This document shows, piece by piece, positions 661-18,333 of a stretch of 64,000 nt of DNA; positions within the stretch are counted from its first letter, which is position 1, and the number at the start of each line of letters is the position of its first letter. Source of the DNA: a virus; the IMG/VR virus record IMGVR_UViG_3300023174_000151, positions 1 through 64,000 of that record. The stretch is one strand, 5' to 3'. The translations under genes were made by a program, and so were the position numbers. The notes below the pieces were generated by a model. That model was not told where the DNA came from. It saw only the letters and a program-made list of their open reading frames with translations, and searched no databases.

Positions 661-779
661 CAACTACCACCCCTCGTGTAGGGCGCGAATCCGGTAAATG
701 CCCGCCACCACTGGGTTCTCGGTATTCGGACTGTTATGTCGAAGGGTGGGGTTGAGCCTCCAGCGGAGATAGGCACCGC
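661..779 (+). ncRNA. candidate structured leader ending in a family A pseudoknot
   Basis: 661-676 complementary to about 739-754; GCCT/AGGC plus GCGG/CCGC pseudoknot at 756-779. Confidence 0.45.
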
Positions 780-797
780 ACAACCAAGAGTAATCCG

Positions 798-1034
798 GTG
801 AACAAGAACCAACAGCTAGCCAAACAAGCTGTAGATAAAGCTAAGAACATGGGCTGGGAAGTCCGTGTTTGCTACGACCAAAGTGACGTGATTGATTATG
901 CGACAGTAGTTGCCTGGGCACCAGGATCTACTAGAGCTCGCTATATCACTTTCATCGATGAGATAGAGGGATCAAAAGGATGGCGATCAGTACACAAACT
1001 TGATAGTCTTCTGGAGTTTCATACTGCTCTCTGA
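798..1034 (+). CDS. early hypothetical protein
   Basis: 78-aa ORF (GTG start) flanked by family A elements. Confidence 0.7.
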   Translation: MNKNQQLAKQAVDKAKNMGWEVRVCYDQSDVIDYATVVAWAPGSTRARYITFIDEIEGSKGWRSVHKLDSLLEFHTAL

Positions 1035-1106
1035 GTACCAGGCGTGATGCCGGGAGGTCGAACCTCCCACTCAGTATTGCCTAGTCCGCAGGAGATGGGC
1101 ACCTGC
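1031..1106 (+). repeat. family A element: tRNA-like junction plus pseudoknot
   Basis: CTGAGT/ACTCAG closing stem, GGC/GCC hairpin, GGGAG-GTCGAAC-CTCCC T-arm-like hairpin, then TGCCTA/TGGGCA plus GCAGG/CCTGC. Confidence 0.75.
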
Positions 1107-1120
1107 ACAGCACAAACATC

Positions 1121-1315
1121 ATGGGCATTCGCTCAGGTTTAGTCGCAGCTATCCGCAATGGTGTAGCCGTTGCACGGATGGAGTTTGACGCTGGCTTAGC
1201 TCAGCACAATGCGGAGTACGAACTCCGTCAGATTAAGGCTAAACAACAACAGCTCGATGCACGTATCACAGGAGATTACATTCCTGCTTCAAGATTACGT
1301 GTGACTAATAGCTGA
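1121..1315 (+). CDS. early hypothetical protein
   Basis: 64-aa ORF flanked by family A elements. Confidence 0.7.
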   Translation: MGIRSGLVAAIRNGVAVARMEFDAGLAQHNAEYELRQIKAKQQQLDARITGDYIPASRLRVTNS

Positions 1316-1387
1316 TCCGTACAAGCGGGTGACCAAGTGCAAACCTTGGTCCAGTCATTGCCTAGTCCGCAGGAGATGGGCACCTGC
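1311..1387 (+). repeat. family A element
   Basis: GCTG/CAGT, ATCCG/CGGGT, GACCAAG-TGCAAAC-CTTGGTC; pseudoknot identical to the 1078-1106 copy. Confidence 0.8.
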
Positions 1388-1401
1388 ACAGCATTAATTC
1401 A

Positions 1402-1563
1402 ATGACACTTACTTACGAACAACTGTTCAAGTTTATGGGCACCTTCAGCAACCAAGAGTTAGATGATGCACAAGTGATAGCAGAATATCACTCCAAAGAA
1501 TCTAGTAAGAGTTACAACCAGATACTGGTTGAGATATTAGTGGAGATGCGTCAAGCAAGCTGA
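1402..1563 (+). CDS. early hypothetical protein (53 aa, not in ORF track)
   Basis: ATG 1402 to TGA 1563, MTLTYEQLFKFMG...; fills the gap between two family A elements. Confidence 0.7.
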   Translation: MTLTYEQLFKFMGTFSNQELDDAQVIAEYHSKESSKSYNQILVEILVEMRQAS

Positions 1564-1631
1564 TCCGTACAAGCGGGTGGCTAGGTGCAAACCCTAGCCC
1601 AGTCATTACCCTTAGCGGAGATGGGTACCGC
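1559..1631 (+). repeat. family A element
   Basis: GGCTAGG-TGCAAAC-CCTAGCC (compensatory relative to the 1311 copy); pseudoknot TACCC/GGGTA plus GCGG/CCGC. Confidence 0.8.
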
Positions 1632-1648
1632 ACAACCAAAGGGTATCC

Positions 1649-1912
1649 ATGGACTTAGCAACAGGCTGGCAAAAGCATCTTGGTGTAACAGGTGGTTATC
1701 AACTGTTTTATCAAGATATCTACATCGGCGAAGTTTCCATTGTTACTGGACCGAAAGGTTCAGGAATAATGGGAAATAACGATCCAGGTCAAGAACCTAC
1801 TTACGAAGTATGGTTTCCAGGGGCAGCTAATCCAATTGGCTACCTTAAGCTTGATGAGATTAAAGGAATCATCAAGTATCTACATCAACTCCAGAATGAT
1901 TTTTGCAAGTAA
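1649..1912 (+). CDS. early hypothetical protein
   Basis: 87-aa ORF downstream of a family A element. Confidence 0.7.
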   Translation: MDLATGWQKHLGVTGGYQLFYQDIYIGEVSIVTGPKGSGIMGNNDPGQEPTYEVWFPGAANPIGYLKLDEIKGIIKYLHQLQNDFCK

Positions 1913-1953
1913 GCCTGAGTAACACCAGGCTTTCCTGCAGAGTTCACTCTGCA
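1911..1953 (+). repeat. family B double-hairpin element
   Basis: AAGCCTG-N8-CAGGCTT-TCC-TGCAGAG-TTCA-CTCTGCA; second copy at 2393-2505. Confidence 0.7.
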
Positions 1954-1976
1954 TTCACCATCGTTTAATTCAACTC

Positions 1977-2381
1977 ATGTTTAGCAACACCATCATCGGC
2001 AACATTACATACATGGAAGTTGCCGTCCATGAAGGCAAAGAGTTCCTTGCGATTACCGTCGCAGTGAACGATCGCTTCAATAGTAGCTGCCGCGTTAAGT
2101 TCAACAACTCTAATGGGTTGTTAACTGCATACATCAACAAGACACTTGTTGTAGGACAACAACTTATCTTGTCCCAGTATGATGTTCGGATCGATAAGAT
2201 CAGGACGCACTACCTAAAAGACGGCAAGATGTTAGCACTCAAGTGTCCCGAGTTGACGCTGACTGGAGTGCGTGCAACCATTGGCGCCTTACCAAAGGCT
2301 GCTAATGGTGCTGCACCAAAGCCCACGATTAGTGCGGCACTAATAGAAGATCATGAGCTAGAGGAAGCACTGGCTGTCTGA
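1977..2381 (+). CDS. putative OB-fold / SSB-like protein
   Basis: IIGNI...LAITVAVN...LVVGQQLIL pattern resembles SSB OB fold; low-complexity acidic tail. Confidence 0.45.
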   Translation: MFSNTIIGNITYMEVAVHEGKEFLAITVAVNDRFNSSCRVKFNNSNGLLTAYINKTLVVGQQLILSQYDVRIDKIRTHYLKDGKMLALKCPELTLTGVRATIGALPKAANGAAPKPTISAALIEDHELEEALAV

Positions 2382-2392
2382 TCTCTGCACTT

Positions 2393-2505
2393 AAGCCTGA
2401 GGTACAACCAATAGGTACACGTCTATACTTCTAATGGATAAATATCCAGGGGGTATAAAGTTACCGGCAGTACTACCAGGCTTTCCTGCAGGGTTCACAC
2501 TCTGC
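2393..2505 (+). repeat. family B element with long internal hairpin
   Basis: Same flanking stems as 1911-1953; loop replaced by about 75 nt of self-complementary sequence. Confidence 0.65.
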
Positions 2506-2527
2506 TACACCATTGCCATTGCACCTA

Positions 2528-2728
2528 ATGAAGAACAGTTACAAGATGAAGAACGGTAGGTACGTAACATTAGATTCGTACCGCCGATCACATGAGAGAA
2601 GGGGGAACATACTCTGTGTTCTCCTCGCACTCCTCATTACTGCCGCCACTGGCGCAGCAGTCGTGGGAGTAGATGTCACAGCTCCAACAGCTGTACCTAC
2701 TACACCTGCACATACGACAGGACCTTGA
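2528..2728 (+). CDS. small membrane protein
   Basis: Hydrophobic stretch ILCVLLALLITAATGAAVVGV; ATG 2528 preferred to TTG 2513. Confidence 0.6.
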   Translation: MKNSYKMKNGRYVTLDSYRRSHERRGNILCVLLALLITAATGAAVVGVDVTAPTAVPTTPAHTTGP

Positions 2729-2773
2729 AGCCAAAGCTCACAATTAGTGCGGCACTAATAGAAGATCATGAAC

Positions 2774-2803
2774 CTTGGCATCCACTCGTGGTGTAAGTCC
2801 AAG
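2774..2803 (+). repeat. family C bulged hairpin (GGCA...GTAAGYCC)
   Basis: CTTGG-CA..TG-TAAGT-CCAAG; related copies at 3586, 5016, 9133 and 55848 (minus). Confidence 0.7.
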
Positions 2804-2832
2804 AGTCACCTACTTATATATAAGTTTTACTT

Positions 2833-3147
2833 ATGTCCCGTAGGTGTCTAAGCCTTGTCCTTTCCATGTCTACCTTATCCTTCACACTTATCTACATCAT
2901 GACTATTCAAGAAGCTTTCCATGCATGGCTAAACGCATGCCCTGCAACAGACTATGAACTACTGTCGGTAAGCGATCATTGCATTACTTATACCTTTAGG
3001 TTTTCTACCAGGGGATCAGAGTATGCAGAAGAGTATACCGCAGATCAAATTGATTTCCTCTCTGACATTGCTGATGAGCAAGAGAAGATTATGAGGGAGG
3101 AGATGCCTGAACCTACCATGGAGTGTCCCATTGAAACACACACCTAG
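2833..3147 (+). CDS. hypothetical protein
   Basis: ORF; true start may be an internal Met. Confidence 0.5.
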   Translation: MSRRCLSLVLSMSTLSFTLIYIMTIQEAFHAWLNACPATDYELLSVSDHCITYTFRFSTRGSEYAEEYTADQIDFLSDIADEQEKIMREEMPEPTMECPIETHT

Positions 3148-3225
3148 TACATCAGTACTTACAGAGGATGACCTTATCCTCATCATCATCACACTCACTT
3201 CCATCCTTATTACAGAACTATTATC

Positions 3226-3582
3226 ATGCTTCACCCCATCACTCAAGAGATCGCTGCCTCCTTCGGGTACACACCTGTTACACCAGAAGAAAGGACCGAG
3301 CAATACGAAGTCGAACCTGACTTCCAAGACGCACCTAAGGGAGCTATCCCCTGCACCGGCAATGTCTTCCGTAACAAACAAGGAGTCTTACGTTGCTACT
3401 GGATTCCAGCCGGCAACAACTACACCTCGCAAGAGAAAGAAGATCTCATCGGTTGGTACGACATCCCCAGCCTAGAGGACATAGAAGAATGGACATTAGG
3501 TGATGAATGCTACACACCTGTATTCGATCAGGTAGAAGCTGATCATCCCGATTCCTGGCTACGTATCCTCAACGTTATCTAA
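3226..3582 (+). CDS. hypothetical protein
   Basis: 118-aa ORF; C-terminal VEADHPDSWL motif. Confidence 0.65.
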   Translation: MLHPITQEIAASFGYTPVTPEERTEQYEVEPDFQDAPKGAIPCTGNVFRNKQGVLRCYWIPAGNNYTSQEKEDLIGWYDIPSLEDIEEWTLGDECYTPVFDQVEADHPDSWLRILNVI

Positions 3583-3585
3583 TTG

Positions 3586-3619
3586 CCTGGGCACCCATCA
3601 CCATGGGGTAAGTCCCAGG
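3586..3619 (+). repeat. family C element
   Basis: CCTGGG-CA-CCCAT..ATGGG-G-TAAGT-CCCAGG. Confidence 0.7.
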
Positions 3620-3649
3620 TATCTAACCAAACCTTAATCTCCTCCTAAC

Positions 3650-3949
3650 ATGACTACCACTTCAACACGCATCAATGAGTACACAGTACTCAAACGTATT
3701 CTCAAAGAACTGAATGAGGTTGTAGCAAGGGAAAGCAAGCGTCCACAAGGATGTGAAGACCTCACACTTTCAATGCTTGCCCTCCTAAAAGAGGAGATCA
3801 TTCCTCAACTAGAGAATGAGATCGAGCATGATCTTGACTACGATCCAACACCTCAATACCTGTACGACAATACAGGGGGTGAGCCTCCAGTAACCATGGC
3901 AGAAATGCATGCTTGTGCTTGGCAACAACATCAAGAAATGCATAGCTAA
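3650..3949 (+). CDS. hypothetical protein
   Basis: 99-aa ORF. Confidence 0.65.
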   Translation: MTTTSTRINEYTVLKRILKELNEVVARESKRPQGCEDLTLSMLALLKEEIIPQLENEIEHDLDYDPTPQYLYDNTGGEPPVTMAEMHACAWQQHQEMHS

Positions 3950-4058
3950 ATCACACGTCCCATAGGTATCTAAGCTTTGTCTTGACAATGTCTTGACACT
4001 GTAATAATAATGTCTATACCTAACGTTAAACTGCTCACACTCCATTGCAATTCAACAC

Positions 4059-4424
4059 ATGCTCACAGCATCCACAACAAGTCTCAAAGAGACTATAAAA
4101 ACAATAGAAGATCGTATCGACGGTCTTATCTCCAAGCTAATCCGTAGCTTTGAGAAACAATATCCTGGTCGTTACGGTGACATGACCTTTGAGATTAACA
4201 AAGGTAATAAGTATTACAAGATCATGGAAGTAACAAGTTCCATGGGTTGTGTTACCAGTAGATCAGTCCATGCCTTTGTCAGTAGACAGACAGGTGCTGT
4301 ATACAAACCAGCAGGCTGGAAGTCTCCGGCTAAACACGTAAGGTACAACTTACTAGACGATGCATCCTATGCAAACTGTCTAGAGCGTGCCGACTGGGCA
4401 GGAGGTTATCTATACATAAGATAA
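4059..4424 (+). CDS. conserved phage early protein
   Basis: KYYKI..SVHAFV..TGAVYKPAGWKSPAKHVRYNL motif recalled from cyanophage and T4-like hypothetical proteins. Confidence 0.7.
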   Translation: MLTASTTSLKETIKTIEDRIDGLISKLIRSFEKQYPGRYGDMTFEINKGNKYYKIMEVTSSMGCVTSRSVHAFVSRQTGAVYKPAGWKSPAKHVRYNLLDDASYANCLERADWAGGYLYIR

Positions 4425-4535
4425 GGGCACACACTATGTGTCTTGACAATGTCCTGACATCTATCCCCCCTCGACCCCCCGTTGGGGTACCAGGGGGGAA
4501 CCTAATCTTCTATTAGTAATGTTAATGAATAACCT

Positions 4536-4817
4536 TTGTTAACATTTCTATCCATCCCTTACCTACCAAGTACACTACTTCAATCCAATCTCCAACCTAT
4601 CAACATGACTTCATCTAACCTTCCCAACATTCCCAACTCAATAAACACAGATCAACTACAAGCTATGGCCTTTGTAGCAAAGATGAAAGAAGCAGCTGAC
4701 CGTGTAGGTGCTGGCTTCATTGGTGGCTTTGTCACACCAGATGGTAAGAAATTTGTTATGACAAACTTCTCAGATCAAACAGACATTGACATGCTCCTAC
4801 CCGAAGGTTTGAAATGA
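4536..4817 (+). CDS. hypothetical protein
   Basis: ORF; probable start at internal ATG (MTSSNL). Confidence 0.55.
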   Translation: MLTFLSIPYLPSTLLQSNLQPINMTSSNLPNIPNSINTDQLQAMAFVAKMKEAADRVGAGFIGGFVTPDGKKFVMTNFSDQTDIDMLLPEGLK

Positions 4818-5011
4818 CTAAACGTTCACTCATCAGCTTTGATCGCACCATCCATGGTGTAAACATAACTGAACATGGAGTTAAATCATTTACCAAGTCA
4901 ATCAAACTTGGTCCGCTTCAACTAACTCTCAATGCCAATCCCAATGGTGTCAAAGGATCCTTTAGTATCCCTGGCACAGGACTAAGCATTCCAAACATTA
5001 AATTAATGTAA
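4814..5011 (+). CDS. DUF4236-like small protein
   Basis: KSIKLGPLQLTLN...FSIPGTGLS pattern. Confidence 0.5.
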   Translation: MTKRSLISFDRTIHGVNITEHGVKSFTKSIKLGPLQLTLNANPNGVKGSFSIPGTGLSIPNIKLM

Positions 5012-5015
5012 AGAT

Positions 5016-5054
5016 CTGGGCATTACCGACGCCAACTCGGTGTGTAAGTCCCAG
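5016..5054 (+). repeat. family C element
   Basis: CTGGG-CA..CCGA/TCGG..TG-TAAGT-CCCAG. Confidence 0.7.
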
Positions 5055-5086
5055 GTAAACAACCACTTCACCTCACTTCAATTTGT

Positions 5087-5290
5087 ATGACACCTTCTGA
5101 ATTCCACCAGCTTACCGATCTAATGCAACAGCATGGCGGTAAGTTTGTACAAAGTCTTGCTACTGCACTACGCTACGCTGATCCACTCAATAGGCAAAAG
5201 ATTCTAGATTCTTTTCCAGATCTTGTGCTTAAGTATGGACCTACGTCTATGTTCAATGCACCCATTCGTCAACCTATGGAGGTACTTTAA
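5087..5290 (+). CDS. hypothetical protein
   Basis: GGKFVQSLA..ADPLN motif recalled from small phage proteins. Confidence 0.7.
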   Translation: MTPSEFHQLTDLMQQHGGKFVQSLATALRYADPLNRQKILDSFPDLVLKYGPTSMFNAPIRQPMEVL

Positions 5291-5562
5291 TGTCATCTAT
5301 CTGGGCTATAAGACATGTTGATGTCTATCCCACAGGCGTCAACGAATATCAAGTCTATGCGGAAGCATGGATAGAAGATCGTATTCAAGTTAGTCCTGCT
5401 ACATGGGAAGAACCAGCAGAGCATAGGCCAGGCTTATGTTCTGCTTCCACCTATGTAGAGGACAAACCACCTAGCAACACAGAAGATCTAGAAGAGTATA
5501 TCCACGAATTAAATCGTGGTAATTCTCTTGACTGGATCGACGTTGATTCCACTGACATCTAA
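5290..5562 (+). CDS. hypothetical protein
   Basis: TAATG translational coupling to upstream ORF. Confidence 0.65.
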   Translation: MSSIWAIRHVDVYPTGVNEYQVYAEAWIEDRIQVSPATWEEPAEHRPGLCSASTYVEDKPPSNTEDLEEYIHELNRGNSLDWIDVDSTDI

Positions 5563-5567
5563 CTATC

Positions 5568-5822
5568 ATGATTGGATTTAGTATCGAATTCAAACCTTGG
5601 TATATCACAGTACGTGGTCCCAGAGGTAAAGTCTATCTAGCTACGGGCTTTAGTAAACATGTACCAGTTACACCACAGAAGTCAATACATCCAGACTTCT
5701 TGGTGATAAGACATCCGTATTGGGATTCTGAGTACTCTACGTTTATTAGTAATGCAACTAACTACATGTCAGAGCACTACGATGAACTAGAAGAAGAAAG
5801 ACAGTACGGTATTTACAAGTAA
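5568..5822 (+). CDS. hypothetical protein
   Basis: 84-aa ORF in operon. Confidence 0.6.
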   Translation: MIGFSIEFKPWYITVRGPRGKVYLATGFSKHVPVTPQKSIHPDFLVIRHPYWDSEYSTFISNATNYMSEHYDELEEERQYGIYK

Positions 5823-5880
5823 CTTATAGTATGTACGAGTAACTTACTTGTATATACACGCAACTTACAAGTAAACCAAT

Positions 5881-5907
5881 CGTCCTAAACATGACGTTAA
5901 AAGGTTT
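5881..5907 (+). promoter_or_regulatory. family D pseudoknot leader
   Basis: CGTC-CT-AAAC-AT-GACG-TTAAAAG-GTTT, 23 nt before ATG. Confidence 0.7.
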
Positions 5908-5930
5908 ACATCCCAACTACAACTCAACTC

Positions 5931-7664
5931 ATGCAATTCCAACTCCCATCAAACCTTCAGCAACACCTCGTCAAGTACGACCCTGAACTAAAGAAAGTTA
6001 TCGCAGCTGCTAAACCTAAGGTGACACGTAATACCCTTGGGTTACCAGATGATCTGATTCCTACTCACATTGTCAGTAAAGAAGAACTGCTACAAGCAGT
6101 TACTAATATCAATGCTGATCCAGTTGAAGATAGGTACCGTGTATTCCAAAAGGATACTGGCGAAGTCAAGGCTATTATCTACCACATAGAAAGCCTATGG
6201 GTAGCAGCCTGGTTACCTAAGTCTGGAGAAGACTACATCTATGGAATATCATTCGCATTTAAACCTAGTGCATTTAAGAAACTTAATATTCCCTACGGTA
6301 AAGATGGAAGGTTATTTAATATGGATAACGTTATCACCAAAAAGTATGGACGCATTGACTTCTGTACATGGACGGACTACATAACAAGAGACAGTATTGA
6401 AGCAGGGTTAACTACACCGTACTGGGCACATAATGCAACTAGTTACAAACAGAAGTTAGTACAAATCAAACGTGGAATTAAACTATTTACTGACCAACTT
6501 CAGCAGACTATACCTCACTGGAAGGATGATGGTACACATAATATGTTCAAGAGACTTGATCCTAAGACTAATAACTATAGATATATCCTACGTATAGCAG
6601 ATAACTTCACAGCAATTCTACATACACCAGAAGATCTTTTCTTGATCCCAGGAGTAGAACTATATAGGAAGTATCTAGATGATAACAACAAACATATACT
6701 AGATACACCTTGGTTCAAACGTTACATTAATACAGAAGCACAAAAGATAATTGATGCCTTCAATCATCCAGACACTAAGTCACCTGATGTATTAGTAGAT
6801 ATACATGAAGACATAAAGAAGATTCTTACCTGGATTAATAAAGTACTAAAGATATGGCCTGCTTGCCCTGTTGATTATTTACAGACTGCTATAAGCAATG
6901 ACATATTCAAAACACTTAGCATCTATAGCTTATGGCCTTCACCTTCCTCACCAGACTTAGTGCATGCCTGGCTTAATACTTATCTACCAGTAGAATCTTT
7001 CTTTAAAATTATCACCAAGTTCACAGAGGAATGGTTGAGTAGGTGCACAAACTATTCGCATACTACCAAGTACAATGCTACGTTTAGTTCATTGCGAGAT
7101 ACGATAGCAATGCTTGATCAGATACTTACAGCAGGTGAAACTATTGATCCACCTAAGCGTTGGCGCATAGAAGAATTCCATGATCATATCCAGACTAAAG
7201 CATGGACAATAAAGAATCCTAATCAAGAATTACCACAAGATCTATTCCCCACACCTATCAAAGTGTTAGATGAAGAACAGAACTGGACATTCTTTGAACC
7301 TAAAGATACAGATCAACTATCTCATCTATTTCCTACACCTAACAAAGGACAAACCTGGACATTCTTCCAGCCAAAAGATACGCACCAGCTATCCCAATGG
7401 GGGCAAGCAGTACGTAACTGTGTAGGTACAGCAGACTCATATGCTAATAACGTTAAAGCTAAGAAGGCATTCATTGTCTTGTGCATGTGCAACAACAAAC
7501 CTAAGTTCACTGTCTTGCTTAAGGTATCAGACGGTGTTATGCACGTAGACCAGATCGTTGGTTTGTCCAATGCCAGGCTCAACGATATTGAAAGAAACCT
7601 TTATGAAAATATGTTTAGCAAAGCATTGCAGCTACGAGAAGAAGAACTAAGATTAGATAACTGA
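5931..7664 (+). CDS. PcfJ-like domain protein
   Basis: C-terminal FHDHI...QLSQWGQAVRNCVG..Y...VDQIVG.SN pattern typical of PcfJ-like domains. Confidence 0.65.
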   Translation: MQFQLPSNLQQHLVKYDPELKKVIAAAKPKVTRNTLGLPDDLIPTHIVSKEELLQAVTNINADPVEDRYRVFQKDTGEVKAIIYHIESLWVAAWLPKSGEDYIYGISFAFKPSAFKKLNIPYGKDGRLFNMDNVITKKYGRIDFCTWTDYITRDSIEAGLTTPYWAHNATSYKQKLVQIKRGIKLFTDQLQQTIPHWKDDGTHNMFKRLDPKTNNYRYILRIADNFTAILHTPEDLFLIPGVELYRKYLDDNNKHILDTPWFKRYINTEAQKIIDAFNHPDTKSPDVLVDIHEDIKKILTWINKVLKIWPACPVDYLQTAISNDIFKTLSIYSLWPSPSSPDLVHAWLNTYLPVESFFKIITKFTEEWLSRCTNYSHTTKYNATFSSLRDTIAMLDQILTAGETIDPPKRWRIEEFHDHIQTKAWTIKNPNQELPQDLFPTPIKVLDEEQNWTFFEPKDTDQLSHLFPTPNKGQTWTFFQPKDTHQLSQWGQAVRNCVGTADSYANNVKAKKAFIVLCMCNNKPKFTVLLKVSDGVMHVDQIVGLSNARLNDIERNLYENMFSKALQLREEELRLDN

Positions 7665-7672
7665 TCTGCCAA

Positions 7673-7710
7673 TAGGTCGGTTACTTAATCCTTATTAAGT
7701 AATCGACCTA
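7673..7710 (+). other. 17-bp hairpin after PcfJ-like gene
   Basis: TAGGTCGGTTACTTAAT-CCTT-ATTAAGTAATCGACCTA (one G-T pair); no U-tract. Confidence 0.7.
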
Positions 7711-7749
7711 CCTTAAGCAAACAGTAGTACCAGACTACGTTTTTATCTC

Positions 7750-7962: not shown

Positions 7963-8097
7963 TGACAAAAGAACTGCTTGATCAAGCTGATAAGCTTTGT
8001 AACAAACTTGAAAAGTTATGTTGGCAAACAGCAATGGATCAAAATGAACAATTGTACAACAGATACAAACAACTAAAATATAAAGCTTGGACTCGTT

Positions 8098-10813: not shown

Positions 10814-10869
10814 AGGTTGCGTTCTAACTAAAGGTGTGTACTATGCTGGTGCACACCTTCAACTAGTTT

Positions 10870-11103: not shown

Positions 11104-13687
11104 ATGTTGGCTTATCTTTGATATAGAAACTGACGGATTTTATGATCAAGCTACTAAAACATTCTGCATTGTCATCTATGATGTCACGCGAGCAGAAACT
11201 TTTGCTTATGGGCCTGATCGCATTGATGATGCTATTGCTTATCTGGCAACCGCTGATGTTCTTATAGGACACAACATAATCTTTTATGATCTCCCTGTCC
11301 TCCAAAAGCTACATTCATTTGTCGCCAAAGCACGCATCATTGATACGCTCATATGTACACGCATCATTTGGCCTAAAGAAAAACTCTATGACCTTGACAT
11401 AGAACAGTATCCAAATGTACCAGCGAAGATAAGAGGTAATGCATCACTTAAAGCTTGGGGTTGGCGTCTTGCTGATAACAAGATTGACTTCAAAGACTTC
11501 TCTGAATACTCAGAGGAGATGCTTATGTACTGTAAACAAGATGTCCAAGTAACACTAAAGTTATATAAGCATATTGTGAAGGAGAAGTATCCTGAATCAG
11601 CGCTTAGACTTGAGCACGACTTCGCACTTGCAATTAATAAACAGATTAGAGCCGGTGTTCCATTTGATGTGGACGCCTGTCTTGATCTAGTAGATAACCT
11701 TAGAAAAAAGAAAGTAGAACTAGAAGAACAATTAAAACAAATTTTTCCACCTATTAAACATAAGACTTGGTTTACACCTAAGGTGAATAATACTGCCCGT
11801 GGTTATGTGAAAGACGTACCATTTGAAAAAACAATAATAGAAGAATTCAACCCTGGTTCACGTAAGCAAATTGTTGAGCGACTCAAGAGTAAGTATGGGT
11901 GGGAACCAGAGAAGACAACAGAGAAAGGTAATCCAATTCTTGATGATGAAGTAATTGAAAAGTTACCATACTCAGAGGCTAAACCTTTAGCTGAATACAT
12001 GTTAATTAAAAAACGTTTAGGGCAAATAGAAGATGGTAACAACGCTTGGCTCAAGCTTGTTAATAACAACACTGGTCGTATGCACGGTGATGTTATTACT
12101 AACGGTTGTATTACTGGTCGTGCAAGTCATCGTCATCCCAACATGGGTCAAGTCCCTGCTGGTTATTCACCTTATGGTAAAGAGTGTCGTGCGTTATTTC
12201 ATGCGCCCCAAGGATGGGACATGATTGGTATAGATGCCAAGGCTTTGGAGCTGCGTTGTCTTGCTGGTTACTTAGCTTATTGGGATCAAGGTGAATATGC
12301 CAAGCTTGTTATTAATCCTGAATCAGATATACATACCATTAACCAAAAGTTATTTGGTGTAGAAACCAGGGATATAGCTAAGCGTTTACTTTATGCTTGT
12401 GTTCCTACTGATATAACAACAGTGCTTACAAAAGAAGGATGGAAAACATATGATGAATTAAAGGTTGGTCAATTAGTTTTAACTTACAACGAAGAAAAAG
12501 AAATAAAAGAATGGAAGCCTATTCTTGAAATCATACTTGAACATGAAGATGATGTTTGGCAAATGCAACATAATCATTCATTCAAAGTACAAGCTACCGC
12601 TGACCATCGGTGGTATGTAAAGAAACGTAAACGTAATAGAAATGTATCTTGCGGTTGGAGCACGGGTAAAAATTATATGGTGTCTAAAGTTGAAACAACA
12701 ACAGAAATAAATACTGAATCTAATATTATTGTTAATGCCCTATTAGTTGAACCTGAATCTTTGCCAATTGACATTGATTGGAAGTGGCAAAAATATGGTA
12801 CAGATTGGACTAAAGTTATTTTAAAAATGAACCAAGCCCAACGTAAAGCTTGGCTATCTGGATTCATAATTGCTGATGGCTTTCAATCATGTAAACCAGA
12901 TCAAAAAGAGAAATGGCATTGGACACAAATACGTAATGAACATTATGAAGCAGCTTTAGTTGCTTCTTATCTGGAATTTCCAGGGGTAATACATGTTGCT
13001 AAGCCATCACTCAATGCTAGTGGTACTACACAAATGCATGTGAGCATTGCAAATAAAGGTCATGTTACTGGACAAAAATTACAAAAGACTTATATAGGAA
13101 AGAAGAATGTATTTTGTATACGTACCGAAAATAAATCTTTTGTTATGCGCCAAGGGGATTGTATTACCATTACAGGAAATTGTTTATATGGTGCAGGTTC
13201 TTTGAAGATGGGAGGAATTATTAATCCGCATGAAAAAGATGAAACAGTTTTGCGTAATCTAGGAAAAACTGCAATGAATTTATTCCTTAAAGGTGTGCCT
13301 GCATTAGCTGAACTTAAAACAAAGATTGAGAGTTACATTTTGACTCGTCAACATTTAATTGGTCTTGACAAACGTGTCTTGTATTGTCGTTCACCTTTTA
13401 AAGGTTTGAATGTGTTGTTACAATCAGCAGGTGCAATCCTAATGAAACAAGTTGTAATAACAATACATAAGAACATCGAAACAAACTTGTCCTTACCCCA
13501 TGGTCAGGAGTGGGAACAAGTCTTGATGGTGCATGATGAAGTTCAATTGGTTTGCAACCCTAAATATACAGAACAGATTAGAGAACAAGCTATGCTTGCC
13601 TTCCCTCAAGCACAGGAATTCTTTGAGTTCCTTTGTCTTATAGAAGGAGATTCTCGTGTAGGATCTGACTGGTCAGCGACACACTGA
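11042..13687 (+). CDS. polA: family A (T7-like) DNA polymerase with 3'-5' exonuclease, intein-containing
   Basis: FDIETDG, GHNIIFYD, YCKQDV; TGRASH, DAKALELR, RDIAKRLLYA/CLYGAG, VHDEVQ; start may be ATG 11081. Confidence 0.95.
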   Translation: MTQNLTVKTSKFVMSPSSANECWLIFDIETDGFYDQATKTFCIVIYDVTRAETFAYGPDRIDDAIAYLATADVLIGHNIIFYDLPVLQKLHSFVAKARIIDTLICTRIIWPKEKLYDLDIEQYPNVPAKIRGNASLKAWGWRLADNKIDFKDFSEYSEEMLMYCKQDVQVTLKLYKHIVKEKYPESALRLEHDFALAINKQIRAGVPFDVDACLDLVDNLRKKKVELEEQLKQIFPPIKHKTWFTPKVNNTARGYVKDVPFEKTIIEEFNPGSRKQIVERLKSKYGWEPEKTTEKGNPILDDEVIEKLPYSEAKPLAEYMLIKKRLGQIEDGNNAWLKLVNNNTGRMHGDVITNGCITGRASHRHPNMGQVPAGYSPYGKECRALFHAPQGWDMIGIDAKALELRCLAGYLAYWDQGEYAKLVINPESDIHTINQKLFGVETRDIAKRLLYACVPTDITTVLTKEGWKTYDELKVGQLVLTYNEEKEIKEWKPILEIILEHEDDVWQMQHNHSFKVQATADHRWYVKKRKRNRNVSCGWSTGKNYMVSKVETTTEINTESNIIVNALLVEPESLPIDIDWKWQKYGTDWTKVILKMNQAQRKAWLSGFIIADGFQSCKPDQKEKWHWTQIRNEHYEAALVASYLEFPGVIHVAKPSLNASGTTQMHVSIANKGHVTGQKLQKTYIGKKNVFCIRTENKSFVMRQGDCITITGNCLYGAGSLKMGGIINPHEKDETVLRNLGKTAMNLFLKGVPALAELKTKIESYILTRQHLIGLDKRVLYCRSPFKGLNVLLQSAGAILMKQVVITIHKNIETNLSLPHGQEWEQVLMVHDEVQLVCNPKYTEQIREQAMLAFPQAQEFFEFLCLIEGDSRVGSDWSATH
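12398..13180 (+). mobile_element. intein (261 aa) with degenerate LAGLIDADG-like region
   Basis: Begins CVPTD, block B ATADHRW, WLSGFIIADG, ends VFCI..ITITGN with +1 Cys; removal restores motif B. Confidence 0.9.
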
Positions 13688-13692
13688 TTAAC

Positions 13693-13721
13693 CGTCCTCC
13701 GAGTATGACGTTAAACTGCTC
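13693..13721 (+). promoter_or_regulatory. family D pseudoknot leader
   Basis: CGTC-CTCC-GAGTA-T-GACG-TTAAAC-TGCTC, 23 nt before ssb ATG. Confidence 0.75.
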
Positions 13722-13744
13722 TACCACCTAACCCCTGACATCAA

Positions 13745-14548
13745 ATGAATTATGTTGACGCATGCGCTGTACTGAACGAGACTCCTCGTGAGGTATTCAC
13801 CAGTGCCACTTCATCCAATCTGTGTGCGGAAGTTATCCTTCCACCTGCAGGAAACAAATCTCCAACTCACATCAAACTTCATGTTTACGGAAAAGCTTGC
13901 GACAAGTTTAAGGACCTACCCAAGGGAACACGGATCTACATACATGGCTCGAAGCTACGGCATGATCTGGACACCCGTACGCACTCACTACATGGTGGAG
14001 TTATCGCTGCGGTTACTGAATCATTCCCGATCTTTAACGATGTCATCCTCACCGGAAGATGTGTAAAAGACATTGATGAAAAAGATCCGCGTTCATTTAG
14101 AACTACACCAGAAGGTTTGATGATTTGTAATCAAACACTTGCTGTTAACACAGGACGTAATCAGTCTGATCTGTTTAACTTCTCTGCTATTAACAGTGCA
14201 CAAGATAAGTTAAATCAAGCTGAACTACTTGCAAACTTCACACGTAAAGGAACAGGACTTACAATCCGTGGTCGTTTAGTAACCGATTCGTGGATTGATA
14301 AAGACACCAAAGAAAAACGTGCGTATGTAAAAATTCAATTAGTACAAATGACTCTTGCACCTAAGGTAACTTCTAGTTCAACAGAACCAGTGGCACCTAA
14401 GCCACAAACACAAGTAGCTAGCACAGGTCCGACCTTGTCAGATCCAGTGGAAACTGCTAGTCTTTGGGGCACAACCAGTGTTGGATTACCTGATCTACCT
14501 GGTGTGTATTCAGCTCCTACTTTCAACGAATCTGAACCTCCCTTCTGA
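13745..14548 (+). CDS. ssb: single-stranded DNA-binding protein, probably two OB folds
   Basis: NDVILTGR...TLAVN...AELLANFTRKG..IRGRL.TDSW.DK; acidic EPPF tail. Confidence 0.8.
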   Translation: MNYVDACAVLNETPREVFTSATSSNLCAEVILPPAGNKSPTHIKLHVYGKACDKFKDLPKGTRIYIHGSKLRHDLDTRTHSLHGGVIAAVTESFPIFNDVILTGRCVKDIDEKDPRSFRTTPEGLMICNQTLAVNTGRNQSDLFNFSAINSAQDKLNQAELLANFTRKGTGLTIRGRLVTDSWIDKDTKEKRAYVKIQLVQMTLAPKVTSSSTEPVAPKPQTQVASTGPTLSDPVETASLWGTTSVGLPDLPGVYSAPTFNESEPPF

Positions 14549-14751
14549 TGACTACTACACACAACCAGTTCACTTTCTTATATGAAGATGGTGAAGACCG
14601 AATCTTGTACGAATTTAAAGCAGTAACTACTGATGAAATTATGCATAGGTTTACAGACTTTTTAAAAGGTTGTGGACATTATGACGCTTCCATCTTAAAT
14701 AGCATGGAAGAAATGGTTGAAGAGTACCGAACACATGGATCTCCTATTTGA
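14548..14751 (+). CDS. conserved phage hypothetical protein
   Basis: YEF.A...EI..RF.DFLKGCG motif. Confidence 0.65.
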   Translation: MTTTHNQFTFLYEDGEDRILYEFKAVTTDEIMHRFTDFLKGCGHYDASILNSMEEMVEEYRTHGSPI

Positions 14752-14766
14752 TTCTATTTAAGATTG

Positions 14767-14792
14767 ACGTCGAGCTGGACGTTAAACGTAGC
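14767..14792 (+). promoter_or_regulatory. family D pseudoknot leader (weaker second stem)
   Basis: ACGTC-GAGCTG-GACGT-TAAAC-GTAGC, 22 nt before ATG 14815. Confidence 0.55.
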
Positions 14793-14814
14793 ATTCCTGT
14801 CCTCTGAATTTACT

Positions 14815-15858
14815 ATGATTGCTCTCATGGCTACTAAGAAAACCACCTCAAGCGGGAGTGATAACTCCTCTTCTCTGGTATCTAAGAGGAGTCTTGACTC
14901 CTTTCGGATGTTCCAGTCCAAAGAATTTGTTTCTGGCTACCAGAATCTAGTTACCATTCAACCGTTAAACAAATCTAAAACACGTGGTTGGTTTGTTCGC
15001 AAGTCCGACTTGGATACCTGTGGATGGACTGCTACTGAAGATCAGTTTGCAAATGGTTCTGTTATCTGGGACTATAAACAAACCTTTGGTATGGCACCAA
15101 ATACTTCCATTGAAGAAGGGTTAAACTTCATTGAGCCTCGTCTGCAGATACTCTTGCGCTCTCCACTTATGGTGGAAGAGACTAGCGGTATGCGTCAGAC
15201 AATTGGTACCTTTGAAGATCCAGAAGTAAAGCAGATGTTCGATAACGATCGTCTTGCTGCTGAACTGGAGAACAGCAAAGGTAACATGTACAAACGTAAG
15301 TACAGCGTACGTACAAAATACCTTGTGTATGTCTTAACTCAAGACAACAGAAGGGCGCATAAGATTCCAATGGTCCTTACTCTTAAGGGCTTAAATGGAA
15401 CTGATGTCAGCGATAAAGTTAAGCTTTATGAAAAAGAAATGTCTAAATGCCTTAGCAAAGCATTAGACTCTGAAATCCCTTTGGCATTCAATGAAAAGTT
15501 CTATGCCACTACAGTGTTTACTCCCCTCTTGGCTAACGAGATGCGTGGTGCAAACAATGTAGAAATCTGTGCCATTGAAAGTTTTGAGATTCCTGATTAC
15601 AGTTCGCAAGAAATTGCAATCGAATCTTTAAGTAACATGTCGATTCCTGATGAAGATCGTGAATCTACATGGAAGATGCAAGGAATATTTGAAGACTACA
15701 TCAACCAACATGCTCGTCAGGATGCCAAGAAACTTGGTGGTGCCTACGGTATTGCAGAAGGTGTAGAGATTCTACCTGTCTCACGTTCCGGTAACACAGT
15801 TGACGTAAAGGTTCTACCTGCACGCAATGAAATTACTGGTGAAGACGACAGCCTTTAA
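14815..15858 (+). CDS. replication-module protein, possibly DUF5895-like
   Basis: Located after ssb; MVLTLKG motif; in-frame ATG 14815 preferred to TTG 14764. Confidence 0.55.
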   Translation: MIALMATKKTTSSGSDNSSSLVSKRSLDSFRMFQSKEFVSGYQNLVTIQPLNKSKTRGWFVRKSDLDTCGWTATEDQFANGSVIWDYKQTFGMAPNTSIEEGLNFIEPRLQILLRSPLMVEETSGMRQTIGTFEDPEVKQMFDNDRLAAELENSKGNMYKRKYSVRTKYLVYVLTQDNRRAHKIPMVLTLKGLNGTDVSDKVKLYEKEMSKCLSKALDSEIPLAFNEKFYATTVFTPLLANEMRGANNVEICAIESFEIPDYSSQEIAIESLSNMSIPDEDRESTWKMQGIFEDYINQHARQDAKKLGGAYGIAEGVEILPVSRSGNTVDVKVLPARNEITGEDDSL

Positions 15859-15871
15859 TTAAACCAAACTT

Positions 15872-15899
15872 AGGGTCAGCATTTATGCTGGCCCTTTTT
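15872..15899 (+). terminator. rho-independent terminator
   Basis: AGGGTCAGCA-TTTA-TGCTGGCCCT followed by T-run. Confidence 0.75.
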
Positions 15900-15913
15900 C
15901 ACATCTACTTACA

Positions 15914-16294
15914 ATGACCCAACAATTTTCTCAAGCACAACTCAATCACATGAAAGAACTAAGGGAATCAGGTAACAGTCAACGTACTGTTGCAACAATG
16001 TACAACTGCCATCGAAAGACTATCTACTATTGGGAGTCACGTGCTTTTGTACTAACTAACAATTCAATAATGTTCCAGACTCAAGGTCGTTATCGTTCTA
16101 ACTCAAAGTACTTTGTTCAACAAGAAGAGCTTGACAGAATGAAAAAACTAAGGGAGCAAGGTATGACCCAGGAAGTGGTGGCTGGTTTGCTGGGACGTAC
16201 AAGAGCTACAGTTCGTCATTGGGAACGTCGTTCATTCCTTTTGGATGATAAGCTTCCTGCATCAGATCCAGTGAATCCTTCACTAGTCCCTTGA
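15914..16294 (+). CDS. tandem HTH DNA-binding protein
   Basis: Two similar units: MKELRESGNSQRTVA..TIYYWE and MKKLREQGMTQEVVA..TVRHWE. Confidence 0.8.
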   Translation: MTQQFSQAQLNHMKELRESGNSQRTVATMYNCHRKTIYYWESRAFVLTNNSIMFQTQGRYRSNSKYFVQQEELDRMKKLREQGMTQEVVAGLLGRTRATVRHWERRSFLLDDKLPASDPVNPSLVP

Positions 16295-16436
16295 TTACAA
16301 CTTGCCTTGTTGTTGCAATCTTGGTAAGTAACACTGCCATTTCTCGTAACTCAGCGATAGATGAGCAGTCGTTAATTTGTCGAGTCATCTTCTCTTGCCA
16401 GAACATATCTTCTGGCGACAGTATAAATTGCAACAT
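16206..16436 (-). CDS. NblA-like protein (divergent)
   Basis: LSPEDMF..RQI...S..EL.EM...L....RQ....LVK matches the NblA two-helix pattern. Confidence 0.5.
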   Translation of the reverse strand: MLQFILSPEDMFWQEKMTRQINDCSSIAELREMAVLLTKIATTRQVVIKGLVKDSLDLMQEAYHPKGMNDVPNDEL

Positions 16437-16480
16437 TAGCCACTACTCAATTACTAATCCTCATTGTAACCTCTTGAACC

Positions 16481-17428
16481 ATGACTACTACAGCAACACA
16501 TACTGAACTTAATGCAGCACAAACAACCATCTACACGCGAACAAATATATTGCGTGCGTTTCCAGACTTCGATGACTCTGGCGTGGTTGGTATTTACCTG
16601 CGAGGTGACTCTTGTCTTGTTGTGTATCGCGATGGTACTGAACGGTTGTATCCAAAGGATGCAATTAAAACAACTTTCATTTCCTATACGCACAGACTCA
16701 AGGACTTCTTTTCATACCTTGGACCTAATTACAGGGGGCCAAGTATCTGGCACGATAACTCTTACATCCTATTCAAAGGCTGGAACTACAGTCACACACT
16801 TGGACACTTAAATGACAATGCAAAACTACAAGGCCAATGGGCAGATAAGTTCATTCGTCTTACTGATCCAACAAAACTTAAGGCGTTGCTTCAGTCAGAG
16901 CACACAGACCTTGGGCATTTGGTTGCACCGGACGGGTTGCGGCTTCCAGATCGGCTCCCTGATTTGGACTCTGAGTTGGAGACAGTGCAAGAAGAACGGC
17001 CCATGTTTGGCGAACCTAACTGCTCATGTGGGTCCTTTCAACGTCAGCTCAACAACCTACCTTTGTTCCAACAAGAGATCGAAGGATTCAAACCACACTG
17101 CATCCACTTAACTTGGATTGCTAAATACAGAAGCCTACTATCCAAACGCACTGAGGCACGTGACGCATGTCCTGCTGGTGTCCCACACACTTGTGTTGCT
17201 TGGTGGTACCAGCCTCCTATGAATCATACCAGTGATGGTCGTTTCCTTTTACTACACACTAAGTCTGGGGTGCAAGCGCCCCTTAGCCATTGGCGTACTT
17301 ACAAACCTAAAGAATCATTTACTCAGCGTCATGCTTGGGATCTATTCTTTAGTATGCTTGATGCAGGCTACGTACCATTCCCTGGTACCTCACTACCTCA
17401 ACTAAGGATGGCTTTTAAACATGACTAA
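16481..17428 (+). CDS. SWIM zinc-finger protein
   Basis: CSCGSF...CIHL motif. Confidence 0.7.
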   Translation: MTTTATHTELNAAQTTIYTRTNILRAFPDFDDSGVVGIYLRGDSCLVVYRDGTERLYPKDAIKTTFISYTHRLKDFFSYLGPNYRGPSIWHDNSYILFKGWNYSHTLGHLNDNAKLQGQWADKFIRLTDPTKLKALLQSEHTDLGHLVAPDGLRLPDRLPDLDSELETVQEERPMFGEPNCSCGSFQRQLNNLPLFQQEIEGFKPHCIHLTWIAKYRSLLSKRTEARDACPAGVPHTCVAWWYQPPMNHTSDGRFLLLHTKSGVQAPLSHWRTYKPKESFTQRHAWDLFFSMLDAGYVPFPGTSLPQLRMAFKHD

Positions 17429-17589
17429 TCCAAATGCATGGCTTACCAAACTAGCCAGCGCCATGTTTGGGATCTATTATTTAATATGCTTGATGCAGGC
17501 TATGTACCATTCCCTGGTACCTCACTACCTCAACTAAGGATGGCTTTTAAACATGACTAATCCAAATGCATGGCTTACCAAACTAGCCA
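17324..17589 (+). repeat. 132-bp tandem duplication across a gene junction
   Basis: Two copies offset by 132 bp with 5 mismatches in the 5' part. Confidence 0.95.
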
Positions 17590-17747
17590 TTGATATTACA
17601 GAAGAAGACAATAGTCCCTGTCTAATGAAAATTGACTGGGACGAAACTGATCCAGAGCTTGACTACTGGAGTAACCTAAGCCAAGAGGGTAAAGAAACCC
17701 TTATCCACAATCTCCTCAACCCTGACGGTACTCACCATGACCATTGA
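17553..17747 (+). CDS. hypothetical protein
   Basis: 64-aa ORF, IDWDETDP motif. Confidence 0.65.
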   Translation: MTNPNAWLTKLAIDITEEDNSPCLMKIDWDETDPELDYWSNLSQEGKETLIHNLLNPDGTHHDH

Positions 17748-18141
17748 TGCATACGGACTTCCATTTGAACAATACGAAGATTTTTTTTCAAGCAATGCAG
17801 CCAATCTAATTGAAACGTATATTGCAACACATAAGTATTTTACAGAAGCAATAAAAGAAGTATATGGAGAAACTGCTACATATGTTCCAGTAGATTCTCC
17901 TGTCTTCTTGGAACTATTCAATGGGCTTGTTTATGAGACGAATAATGAATGTCGTCGTTACCAAAAGAAAAACAATCCTGAAGCTATGAAAGACGTTAGG
18001 TTAAGTCCTGATTTATTTGGTAATGATGAACTTCTTGATCAAATAAAAAAAGTCAATCAAAAAATAGATGATCTGCTTGAAGTCTTTATTATTGCACCAC
18101 CAAACCTACCTCCTAATATCACAGGAGACACGGAGGGGTGA
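17737..18141 (+). CDS. hypothetical protein
   Basis: 134-aa ORF. Confidence 0.65.
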   Translation: MTIDAYGLPFEQYEDFFSSNAANLIETYIATHKYFTEAIKEVYGETATYVPVDSPVFLELFNGLVYETNNECRRYQKKNNPEAMKDVRLSPDLFGNDELLDQIKKVNQKIDDLLEVFIIAPPNLPPNITGDTEG

Positions 18142-18169
18142 GTAGACTCCTGTTGTTCATGTGAGGAAC

Positions 18170-18196
18170 CGTCCTGGTGATGACGTGAAAAGCACC
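18170..18196 (+). promoter_or_regulatory. family D pseudoknot leader
   Basis: CGTC-CT-GGTG-AT-GACG-TGAAAAG-CACC, 23 nt before ATG 18220. Confidence 0.75.
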
Positions 18197-18219
18197 GCCA
18201 AACCTACCTATTCAATTTA

Positions 18220-18333
18220 ATGTTTGAAACCATTCTTGCTTACATTCTTCCCTTTGCCAAAGACTTACTTTGGACAGCATGCGCAGCAATGCTGGCCTTA
18301 GTACTCGCCAAAATCAAATCCCAATTCATCTGA
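18220..18333 (+). CDS. 37-aa hydrophobic peptide (not in ORF track)
   Basis: MFETILAYILPFAKDLLWTACAAMLALVLAKIKSQFI; at family D spacing and 3 nt before the next ATG. Confidence 0.6.
   Translation: MFETILAYILPFAKDLLWTACAAMLALVLAKIKSQFI

Follow-up and report, generated by a model that had tools for sequence, protein, structure and literature searches.

Coremin, the motif GUCCGAAGACGUUAAACUAC (also xrRNA-C; xrRNA, exoribonuclease-resistant RNA), occurs in RNA viruses of plants and fungi, among them beny- and cucumoviruses (Dilweg et al. 2019, PMC6546385; 2023, PMC10520033). As described in the parts of these two papers that were consulted, it consists of a 3–4-bp hairpin whose loop reads YGAD or YGNNAD, then a conserved spacer in which, according to mutational data (PMC6546385), AAA is essential, and then a second hairpin; it stalls the exoribonuclease Xrn1 as well as scanning ribosomes (the latter in vitro), and a pseudoknot between the loop and the spacer has been proposed. 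A flaviviral xrRNA is reported to block bacterial RNase J1 in vitro, and RNase J is a subject of study in Synechocystis. A different kind of repeated element, PeSL, which combines a σ70 promoter with a terminator stem-loop, is described from T4-type phages in the consulted parts of Arbiol et al. 2010 (PMC2839356) and Comeau et al. 2014 (PMC4122927). Here, we analyze four families of repeated folds in the early arm of the genome of an S-EIVl-like cyanophage, using bases 1–64000 (the window) of the 72,113-bp IMG/VR virus record IMGVR_UViG_3300023174_000151. One of the families, D, resembles coremin. We consider it plausible, if short of probable, that the folds act as modules between cistrons, setting and protecting the 5′ end of each, and double as recombination points for gene cassettes.

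The early arm (positions 661–18333, plus strand) contains ~33 open reading frames (ORFs), most of them small. Among 33 plus-strand starts curated between positions 798 and 18337, 15 carry an upstream member of one of four repeat families, A–D. Family A precedes the starts at 798, 1121, 1402, and 1649, with 14–18 nt between the last paired base and the start codon; family B precedes those at 1977 and 2528 (22–23 nt); family C, those at 2833, 3650, 5087, and 9194 (27–31 nt); and family D, those at 4059 (where the element is disrupted), 5931, 13745, 14815, and 18220 (22–23 nt). The original prediction, made from the sequence alone, that ca. 16 early and middle genes are preceded by four folds at family-specific spacing is thus borne out. 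The same is true of its description of the spacers as A/C-rich and G-poor: pooled spacers (338 nt) contain 35% A, 33% C, 27% T, and 5.9% G, compared with 19.6% G in the arm overall, and 0 of 10,000 random draws of equal length were as low in G.

Folding energy by itself is weak evidence for the folds (9 of 24 upstream regions have z ≤ −2, and D regions give +0.66, −0.81, and −0.56), and support for them comes from covariation in relatives. IMG/VR loci used for comparison carry L-numbers (L003, L021, etc.). They include 16 relatives with DNA polymerases 76–97% identical to that of the window, fetched with at most 10 kb of upstream sequence. The closest named relative is Synechococcus phage S-EIVl (66% identity in the family-A DNA polymerase), no other named phage being near. 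Covariation in relatives supports the proposed helices of families A, C, and D, in agreement with the earlier expectation that covariation, along with spacing, would be the real evidence. The folds are real, strand-specific nucleic-acid structures.

Family D has the form CGUCCU-N5-UGACGUUAAAC-N5′, in which the invariant CGUC can pair with GACG, producing an H-type pseudoknot. The loop-flanking helix formed by the two N5 blocks covaries at 5/5 pairs, with 90% pairing; compensated cells numbered 34, versus 7.8 ± 4.8 in shuffles, and 0 of 500 shuffles scored as high. Among 132 IMG/VR matches listed, the two unconstrained 5-mers were complementary at 5/5 positions in 109 and at 4/5 positions in 21. 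The window contains five members:

3956–4036, plus strand: disrupted D, with a 62-nt insert (3961–4022) in the loop; 22 nt before ATG 4059.
5881–5907, plus strand: coremin-like D; 23 nt before ATG 5931 (577-aa PcfJ-like protein).
13693–13721, plus strand: D; 23 nt before ATG 13745 (SSB).
14766–14792, plus strand: D variant with an ACGUC/GACGU stem and a short second helix; 22 nt before ATG 14815 (DUF5895 protein).
18170–18196, plus strand: D variant with the spacer GUGAAAA; 23 nt before ATG 18220 (37-aa membrane-like ORF).

In the copy at 5881, the loop-flanking helix is AAAC/GUUU in the window and GAGCA/UGCUC in the 97% relative L003. The copy at SSB is found at the same place in S-EIVl and also before SSB orthologues in most relatives. 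The copy disrupted in the window is intact before the homologous gene in L072, and an RNA contig of metatranscriptome run X2 joins position 3960 to 4023 via 8 letters, restoring an intact D.

D and coremin share, in the same order, the stem of the first coremin hairpin (hp1), (C)GUC/GAC(G), and the spacer UUAAAC(U), i.e., 15 of 20 coremin positions. In a 37-sequence alignment of D, GACGU is invariant and CGUC is present, matching the 3–4-bp GUC/GAC stem of coremin; unpaired cells in this stem are due to 1–2-nt register shifts in the ungapped alignment. The coremin spacer (UUAAACUAC, with its AAA) has its counterpart in UUAAAC, which follows GACG in three of the four intact window copies (5881, 13693, and 14766); the fourth, at 18170, has UGAAAA in its spacer, and AAA is invariant in 37/37 aligned D sequences. 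In both motifs the loop starts with a pyrimidine and ends with A plus U, A, or G, and tandem copies occur in both.

It had been recognized from the outset that the elements could be absent from relatives. We found D in 16/16 relatives and C in 13/16, the three without C having only 1.4–3.3 kb of upstream flank. The D pattern was found in at least 113 IMG/VR stretches (G+C 0.33–0.63 among the matches listed), and the C pattern in at least 119 (G+C 0.30–0.67 among the matches listed). The idea of a toolkit special to the early arm of this phage thus has to be abandoned: the families are RNA motifs with a wide distribution among phages. A 17-base D pattern gave 60 matches in 56 stretches when scanned against bacterial genomes totaling 596 Gb. 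Since this number is about that expected by chance, only the 44 matches with pseudoknot complementarity (≥4/5 pairs) were counted. According to record titles, these came from Bacillota, Chloroflexota, Patescibacteria, cyanobacteria, and other groups, and none came from Alpha-, Beta-, Gamma-, or Epsilonproteobacteria, while 6 of the 16 chance-like matches were proteobacterial. The taxonomic spread of D fits the distribution of RNase J.

Canonical coremin forms with 4- or 6-nt loops were present in at least 119 viral stretches, mostly small contigs of RNA-virus size. Among the matches listed, 16 lay in contigs of 23–159 kb, one of them 15 nt before a tRNA; loops among 125 matches listed included CGAA (24), CGCAAT (16), CGAAAT (15), and others. 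A literature search found no link between coremin and phages, although supplementary alignments outside its scope may hold loop variants closer to D.

Family C is built from a covarying outer stem, a conserved asymmetric internal loop (5′ side/3′ side approximately CAU/UGUAAGU), and an inner hairpin that is free in length and sequence. The outer stem appears as CUGGG/CCCAG, CUUGG/CCAAG, CUAGG/CCUAG, and many other variants, with 4/4 variable pairs covarying (62 compensated cells versus 21.6 ± 3.5 in shuffles). Early-arm copies are as follows:

2773–2803, plus strand: C; 29 nt before ATG 2833.
3586–3619, plus strand: C; 30 nt before ATG 3650.
5015–5055, plus strand: C; 31 nt before ATG 5087.
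7907–7935, plus strand: remnant of the 5′ half of C within the 3′ end of gene 7750–7962; direct repeat with the C at 9133.
9133–9166, plus strand: C; 27 nt before ATG 9194.

All family members in the window are on the plus strand of the early arm, with the exception of one C-like copy on the minus strand at 55845–55876. That copy comprises an outer stem, GGCA, and GUAAGUCC, and occupies an intergenic gap, co-directional with the late minus-strand genes. In high-GC phage contigs (L136, L140, L148, L163, and others), C follows a conserved protein C-terminus, and downstream of C a short GGC-rich motif is repeated in long runs. Comparison of C with the plant-virus xrRNA-LT, made by description only and from the consulted part of PMC7668246, revealed no likeness, because xrRNA-LT conserves its apical loop, whereas the apical loops of C are free.

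The family A element is ~85 nt long and begins at the upstream stop codon (CUGA). It includes P1, P2 with the loop GUGCAAAC, a conserved linker, and one of three kinds of P3. In P2, 6/7 pairs covary with 99% pairing, and P1 has two invariant U·G pairs, which on the other strand would give A·C mismatches. Family B comprises a pair of hairpins, of which the first carries the loop AGUAACAC; like A, it begins at a stop codon. Copies of the two families in the window are:

756–779, plus strand: terminal module of A, P3 type a, with two crossing helices around GGAGAU; 18 nt before GTG 798; preceded by a longer structured leader starting at ~661.
1031–1106, plus strand: A variant starting at the upstream stop codon (CTGA), in which a closed junction with two hairpins replaces P1–P2, followed by P3a; 14 nt before ATG 1121.
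1312–1387, plus strand: A, beginning at the upstream stop codon, with P1 UCCGU/GCGGG, a covarying P2 stem with the loop GUGCAAAC, the linker CAGUCAUUGCC, and P3a; 14 nt before ATG 1402.
1560–1631, plus strand: A, with a P2 stem fully compensated relative to the copy at 1312; 17 nt before ATG 1649.
1912–1953, plus strand: B, beginning at the upstream stop codon, with a hairpin carrying the loop AGUAACAC, a short linker, and a second, covarying hairpin; 23 nt before ATG 1977.
2476–2505, plus strand: second copy of B, with the linker and second hairpin retained and the first hairpin degenerate; 22 nt before ATG 2528.

Positions 1076–1112 and 1357–1393, which belong to the A copies before 1121 and 1402, form a 100% repeat. 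A scan with the A pattern returned 117 stretches with 120 distinct copies; ~114 of these occur in context, and every one of the ~114 is on a contig of 0.40–0.54 G+C. The 16-nt B pattern was found in 23 stretches; only ~13 are in a B context, and the remainder are chance-like. A scan of the window with Rfam 15 gave 0 matches at the gathering score, a scan of positions 400–18600 at E ≤ 5 gave one weak unrelated match within the polymerase gene, and Rfam scans of eight relatives returned tRNAs only. Pistol, twister, and hatchet ribozymes, preQ1-I riboswitches, K-turns, a 16S rRNA hairpin mimic, and a T7-like cyanophage promoter were considered from general knowledge; none was supported, and all were set aside.

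Because the elements are repeated before genes and tRNAs, because cassette junctions fall inside them, and because one D copy is partly replaced by a σ70-like promoter, they could be taken for DNA-level signals, i.e., promoters for an unrecognized phage RNA polymerase or σ factor, hairpin promoters, or priming or recombination sites. DNA-level promoters had been named in advance as one outcome that would refute the RNA interpretation. The sequence upstream of the folds is, however, not conserved: in the 45 nt upstream of D no position exceeds 0.3 bit (210 distinct copies), and upstream of C only three stem-flanking positions reach 0.4–0.7 bit (125 distinct copies). σ70-like sites in the arm are not enriched (37 versus 48.4 ± 6.5 in shuffles), and a terminator scan likewise showed no enrichment. 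Moreover, both halves of each covarying helix are needed on one strand, A has its invariant U·G pairs, D stems contain 31 G·U versus 11 A·C, the conserved loops lack symmetry, every copy runs in the direction of transcription, and the large proteins tested included neither a recognizable RNA polymerase nor a σ factor. Promoters can thus be dismissed, and a DNA-level function as a whole appears highly improbable.

The best σ70-like site of the arm (3982–4011, 11 of 12) lies inside the 62-nt insert in D. The insert (3961–4022) contains two overlapping TTGACA boxes and TAATAAT-like boxes, and may be a small mobile promoter cassette; similar sequence is seen again at 4439–4459 and, in weaker form, at 2843–2864.

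A hammerhead descriptor, which tested for the core CUGAUGA, GAAA, a UH cleavage site, and three helices, was run over 542 loci (4.26 Mb). Seven type-II hammerheads were found, versus one in the shuffle, in L021, L072, L306, L088, L324, L331, and L366, all with the core features. In L021, L072, and L306, stem III covaries and the hammerhead is located 28 nt upstream of a homologue of gene 2528 (41% identity, E = 7e-11), in the slot that B fills in the window. In an A element of L088, a hammerhead takes the place of P1–P2 and is joined to the remaining 3′ module. By the same descriptor, the whole 72-kb genome from which the window is taken has no type-II hammerhead, its one loose core match being within coding sequence. 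Rfam at E ≤ 10 did not report the descriptor-found hammerhead of L021, and no hammerhead of the other relatives was reported by Rfam either.

The presence of ribozymes in these slots is in line with a role of the elements as processing signals, whether as sites for host endonucleases (RNase E, RNase III, or RNase P-like) or, in the case of A, B, and C, as new self-cleaving ribozymes, that would yield monocistronic units. The exactly intercistronic position of the elements, the start of A and B at the upstream stop codon, and an RNA contig of run X1 (9169–9564) that starts just after the C at 9133–9166 (a single contig, and a weak hint) point the same way. New ribozyme classes were earlier found beside known ribozymes in phage-like DNA, and in the T7 early region RNase III sites cut polycistronic RNA. 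We nevertheless think processing signals unlikely: no Rfam ribozyme or other relevant family was found in the arm at E ≤ 5, the helices (4 + 5 bp in D, 6 bp plus 2–9 bp in C, and 6–7 bp in each A hairpin) are well below the ~20 bp needed by an RNase III site, and the nearest relative of D blocks a nuclease rather than being a cleavage site.

The original prediction held that the folds replace Shine–Dalgarno (SD)-type initiation. SD-like motifs at −20 to −4 are rare before early starts (2/33), but are found at only 10/69 other starts (the latter identified by a crude ORF caller); SD-less starts are not peculiar to the early arm and are common genome-wide. Nor do the elements stand only where an SD-less start follows. 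In six relatives, C is upstream of tRNA-Leu(UAA), directly adjoining it (with a 2-nt gap in L006), and in other phages C precedes tRNA genes or ordinary SD sites at varied distances. D, too, precedes tRNA genes or canonical SD sites (at, e.g., 17–57 nt) in other phages and prophages. Downstream of many type-a A copies in relatives, AGGAG or GGAG stands 7–9 nt before the start; the gene 798 orthologues of S-EIVl, L020, and L021 are among these cases. At that place, the window has AAGAG before gene 798, versus AGGAG in L020 and L021. The claim that the folds substitute for SD initiation is therefore not supported. The companion claim of clear GGAG(G) sites at capsid and scaffold genes stands in part: GGAGG is present upstream of the major head gene (59399–60565, phrog_1357), and no scaffold gene was identified.

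These positions bear on a related possibility, that the folds are translation elements that recruit or position the 30S subunit, e.g., via protein S1 or another ribosomal contact, and that, together with the G-poor leader, substitute for the SD. Tight family-specific spacing (40/48 D copies of the lineage are at 26–29 nt), nearly G-free leaders, the rarity of SD motifs, and the in vitro contact of coremin with ribosomes, which stalls scanning ones, all suit it. Yet such an element would not be expected directly before tRNA genes, before canonical SD sites at other distances, ahead of true SD sequences, or in a slot that can be filled by a hammerhead ribozyme, and the uniformity of spacing is owed largely to orthologous or duplicated copies. 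A dedicated translation element is thus distinctly unlikely.

Conserved loops in freely varying stems may also be read as operators, i.e., sites at which a phage or host RNA-binding protein would recognize UGACGUUAAAC in D or the internal loop in C and so control an early/middle regulon. The location of D before SSB in S-EIVl and before 20/21 clustered SSB orthologues fits such control. Models for it are RegA and the operator of T4 gene 32, in which an unstructured leader comes after a pseudoknot. The same motifs are, however, spread over contigs of 0.30–0.67 G+C and genomes of many phyla, and the protein would therefore have to be universally present. Protein searches recognized no RNA-binding protein in the early arm, and an operator would not be expected to change places with a hammerhead. 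We regard operators as very improbable.

The families are interchangeable. Proteins encoded downstream of C or D were clustered over all loci, a sample biased by the way the loci were fetched, with the following counts:

PcfJ-like cluster: preceded by D in 25 cases and by C in 4.
DUF5895 cluster: D 22, C 3.
SSB cluster: D 20, C 1.
GP88-like cluster: D 10, C 4.
Another orthologue cluster: D 9, C 11.

Thus, orthologous genes carry different families in different genomes, and the elements behave as structure-plus-gene modules, as had been proposed. Cassettes bounded by duplicated element halves were also found. A window cassette at 7931–9131 (~1.2 kb, two ORFs) is flanked by the C 5′-half remnant and by the C at 9133, and is absent from L003; L016 carries an additional gene, encoding 105 aa, that is flanked by two C copies with identical cores. 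Because the same 30–85-nt sequences recur before many genes, the elements would also serve as homologous recombination sites that move gene or tRNA cassettes.

In relatives L004–L006, L008–L010, L012, and L014–L018, a tRNA gene is located just after the homologue of gene 7750–7962; it was confirmed by Rfam in L004–L006, L012, L014, and L015, and is tRNA-Leu(UAA) by anticodon in L006 and L012. At this position the window holds the two-ORF cassette instead, and there are no tRNA genes in the window.

The guarding of 5′ ends, which we favor, would operate as follows. The early arm would be read as a few long polycistronic RNAs, in which many cistrons start with a two-part module: a compact, very stable fold right after the upstream stop codon, and a short, unstructured, nearly G-free leader that reaches the start codon. 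The interchangeable set from which the fold is drawn would comprise the coremin-type D, a hairpin with a pseudoknot, together with A, B, and C; in relatives it would also include the type-II hammerhead. After an upstream cut, the fold would halt 5′-to-3′ decay, either by the exonuclease RNase J or by RNase E tracking from the 5′ end; a hammerhead would have an equivalent outcome, a 5′-hydroxyl end with a hairpin. The fold would also prevent pairing of upstream coding RNA with the leader, which would remain open as a ribosome landing site for SD-independent or weak-SD initiation, and would be placed as near the start as the ribosome permits. This scheme is suggested by covarying structure, the match between D and coremin, interchange of the families, and hammerheads in the same slots. 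It also draws on the positions before tRNAs and SD sites, which are not translation-specific, on the lack of a promoter signal, on the host range of D, and on the cassettes. From these features of sequence and position we infer both nuclease resistance and a role in expression.

Several observations weigh against this scheme. The CGUC/GACG stem of D never varies, so that covariation speaks neither for nor against it, and the putative hp1 stem is supported by the likeness to coremin rather than by covariation. The D loops of the window and its lineage are 8 nt long (CU-NNNN-A-U) and do not have the YGAD/YGNNAD form. There is no separate second hairpin (hp2) either: the 5 nt that follow the D spacer pair with the middle of the hp1 loop, making the H-type pseudoknot explicit, and what comes after the pseudoknot on the 3′ side is the G-poor leader, without a hairpin. 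C, A, and B match nothing known, so that their role is argued only from the way they change places with D and the hammerhead. G·U outnumbers A·C by 31 to 11 in D stems, but the numbers are 14 to 18 in the C outer stem. The distance of 26–29 nt from the spacer AAA to the start in 40/48 lineage D copies fits a direct role in initiation as well, although many of the 48 copies are orthologous and hence not independent. An open G-poor leader should itself be readily attacked by RNase E. Directly after a terminator, where D is found in some prophage-like contexts of Firmicutes, is an odd place for an internal guard. Finally, four metatranscriptomes hold 5–9% of sampled words, and the RNA contigs on positions 600–19000 are short (depth 2–9) and carry no molecule starts or ends; a contig start at 4389, common to two RNA studies, is within a gene and away from the elements.

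A stronger version of the proposal is possible but doubtful. D, related in sequence to plant-virus coremin, would be the first exoribonuclease-resistant RNA described from bacteria and their phages, blocking RNase J or RNase E where each cistron begins, and C, A, and B would be three further classes with the same job, all belonging to a shared, horizontally exchanged kit. Since hammerheads swap with A, B, and C, at least one of these might be a new class of self-cleaving ribozyme. If true, phages would assemble early operons from a shared kit of RNA 5′-end guards. The coremin literature consulted for the motif knows such RNAs from eukaryotic RNA viruses only; with the coremin stem and spacer present hundreds of times in double-stranded DNA (dsDNA) phage contigs and bacterial genomes, it becomes testable whether nuclease roadblocks based on structure are used generally against RNA decay in bacteria as well. 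Families A, B, and C add three RNA motif families that are backed by covariation and have no Rfam counterpart, and their interchange with D and hammerheads offers a handle on the long-open question of the role of hammerheads in phages.

The early arm is syntenic with the minus-strand arm of S-EIVl, and its products include the 577-aa PcfJ-like protein, a GP88-like protein, DNA polymerase, SSB, and the DUF5895 protein. Protein searches recognized no RNA polymerase, σ factor, or RNase among the window proteins tested. The DNA polymerase (11042–13687) is 881 aa long, compared with ~620 aa in 15 relatives. Its insert (12404–13183, residues 455–714) starts with C and ends with N then C, is intein-like in appearance, lacks a counterpart in L004, and is present in the 97% relative L003. 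A 132-nt tandem duplication (17324–17587, 96% identical) repeats the 3′ end of gene 16481–17428 together with the beginning of the ORF that follows. Hairpins that resemble terminators and have U tracts, at 328–353 (after the first ORF), 9575–9598 (before gene 9602), and 15871–15896 (before gene 15914), suggest that the arm is split into a few transcription units. A G/C-rich hairpin with C and G runs (4462–4498), outside all four families, is located in the 180-nt gap upstream of gene 4605.

In comparison with known systems, D differs from coremin in its location: D is found in 5′ leaders of dsDNA-phage genes and before tRNAs, while coremin is found in 3′ UTRs (untranslated regions) of RNA viruses; the hosts of D have no Xrn1, and its nuclease resistance is putative. 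Like the T7 RNase III sites and the T4 gene 32 operator, the elements are structured and lie between cistrons of long phage early transcripts; unlike them, they have helices too short for RNase III and recur as the same motifs in phages of many unrelated hosts. Hammerheads occupy the same intercistronic slot, 16–28 nt before the next start, in L021, L072, L306, and L324, and differ in their core, which A–D elements do not have. Ribozyme insulators are in use in synthetic biology, and the modules described here may be natural compact insulators for multigene expression in cyanobacteria. PeSLs, as far as the consulted parts of the two papers describe them, share with the elements the repetition of short conserved sequences before many small early genes. 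They differ from our elements, which are defined by conserved RNA loops and pseudoknots and show neither promoter conservation (upstream conservation is low and promoter sites are not enriched) nor a U tract after the folds. Both, finally, are points of homologous exchange for the insertion, deletion, and swapping of genes, as seen here in the window cassette at 7931–9131, the additional L016 gene, and the D/C swaps before orthologues, and such element repeats would explain the shuffling of small early genes in this phage lineage.

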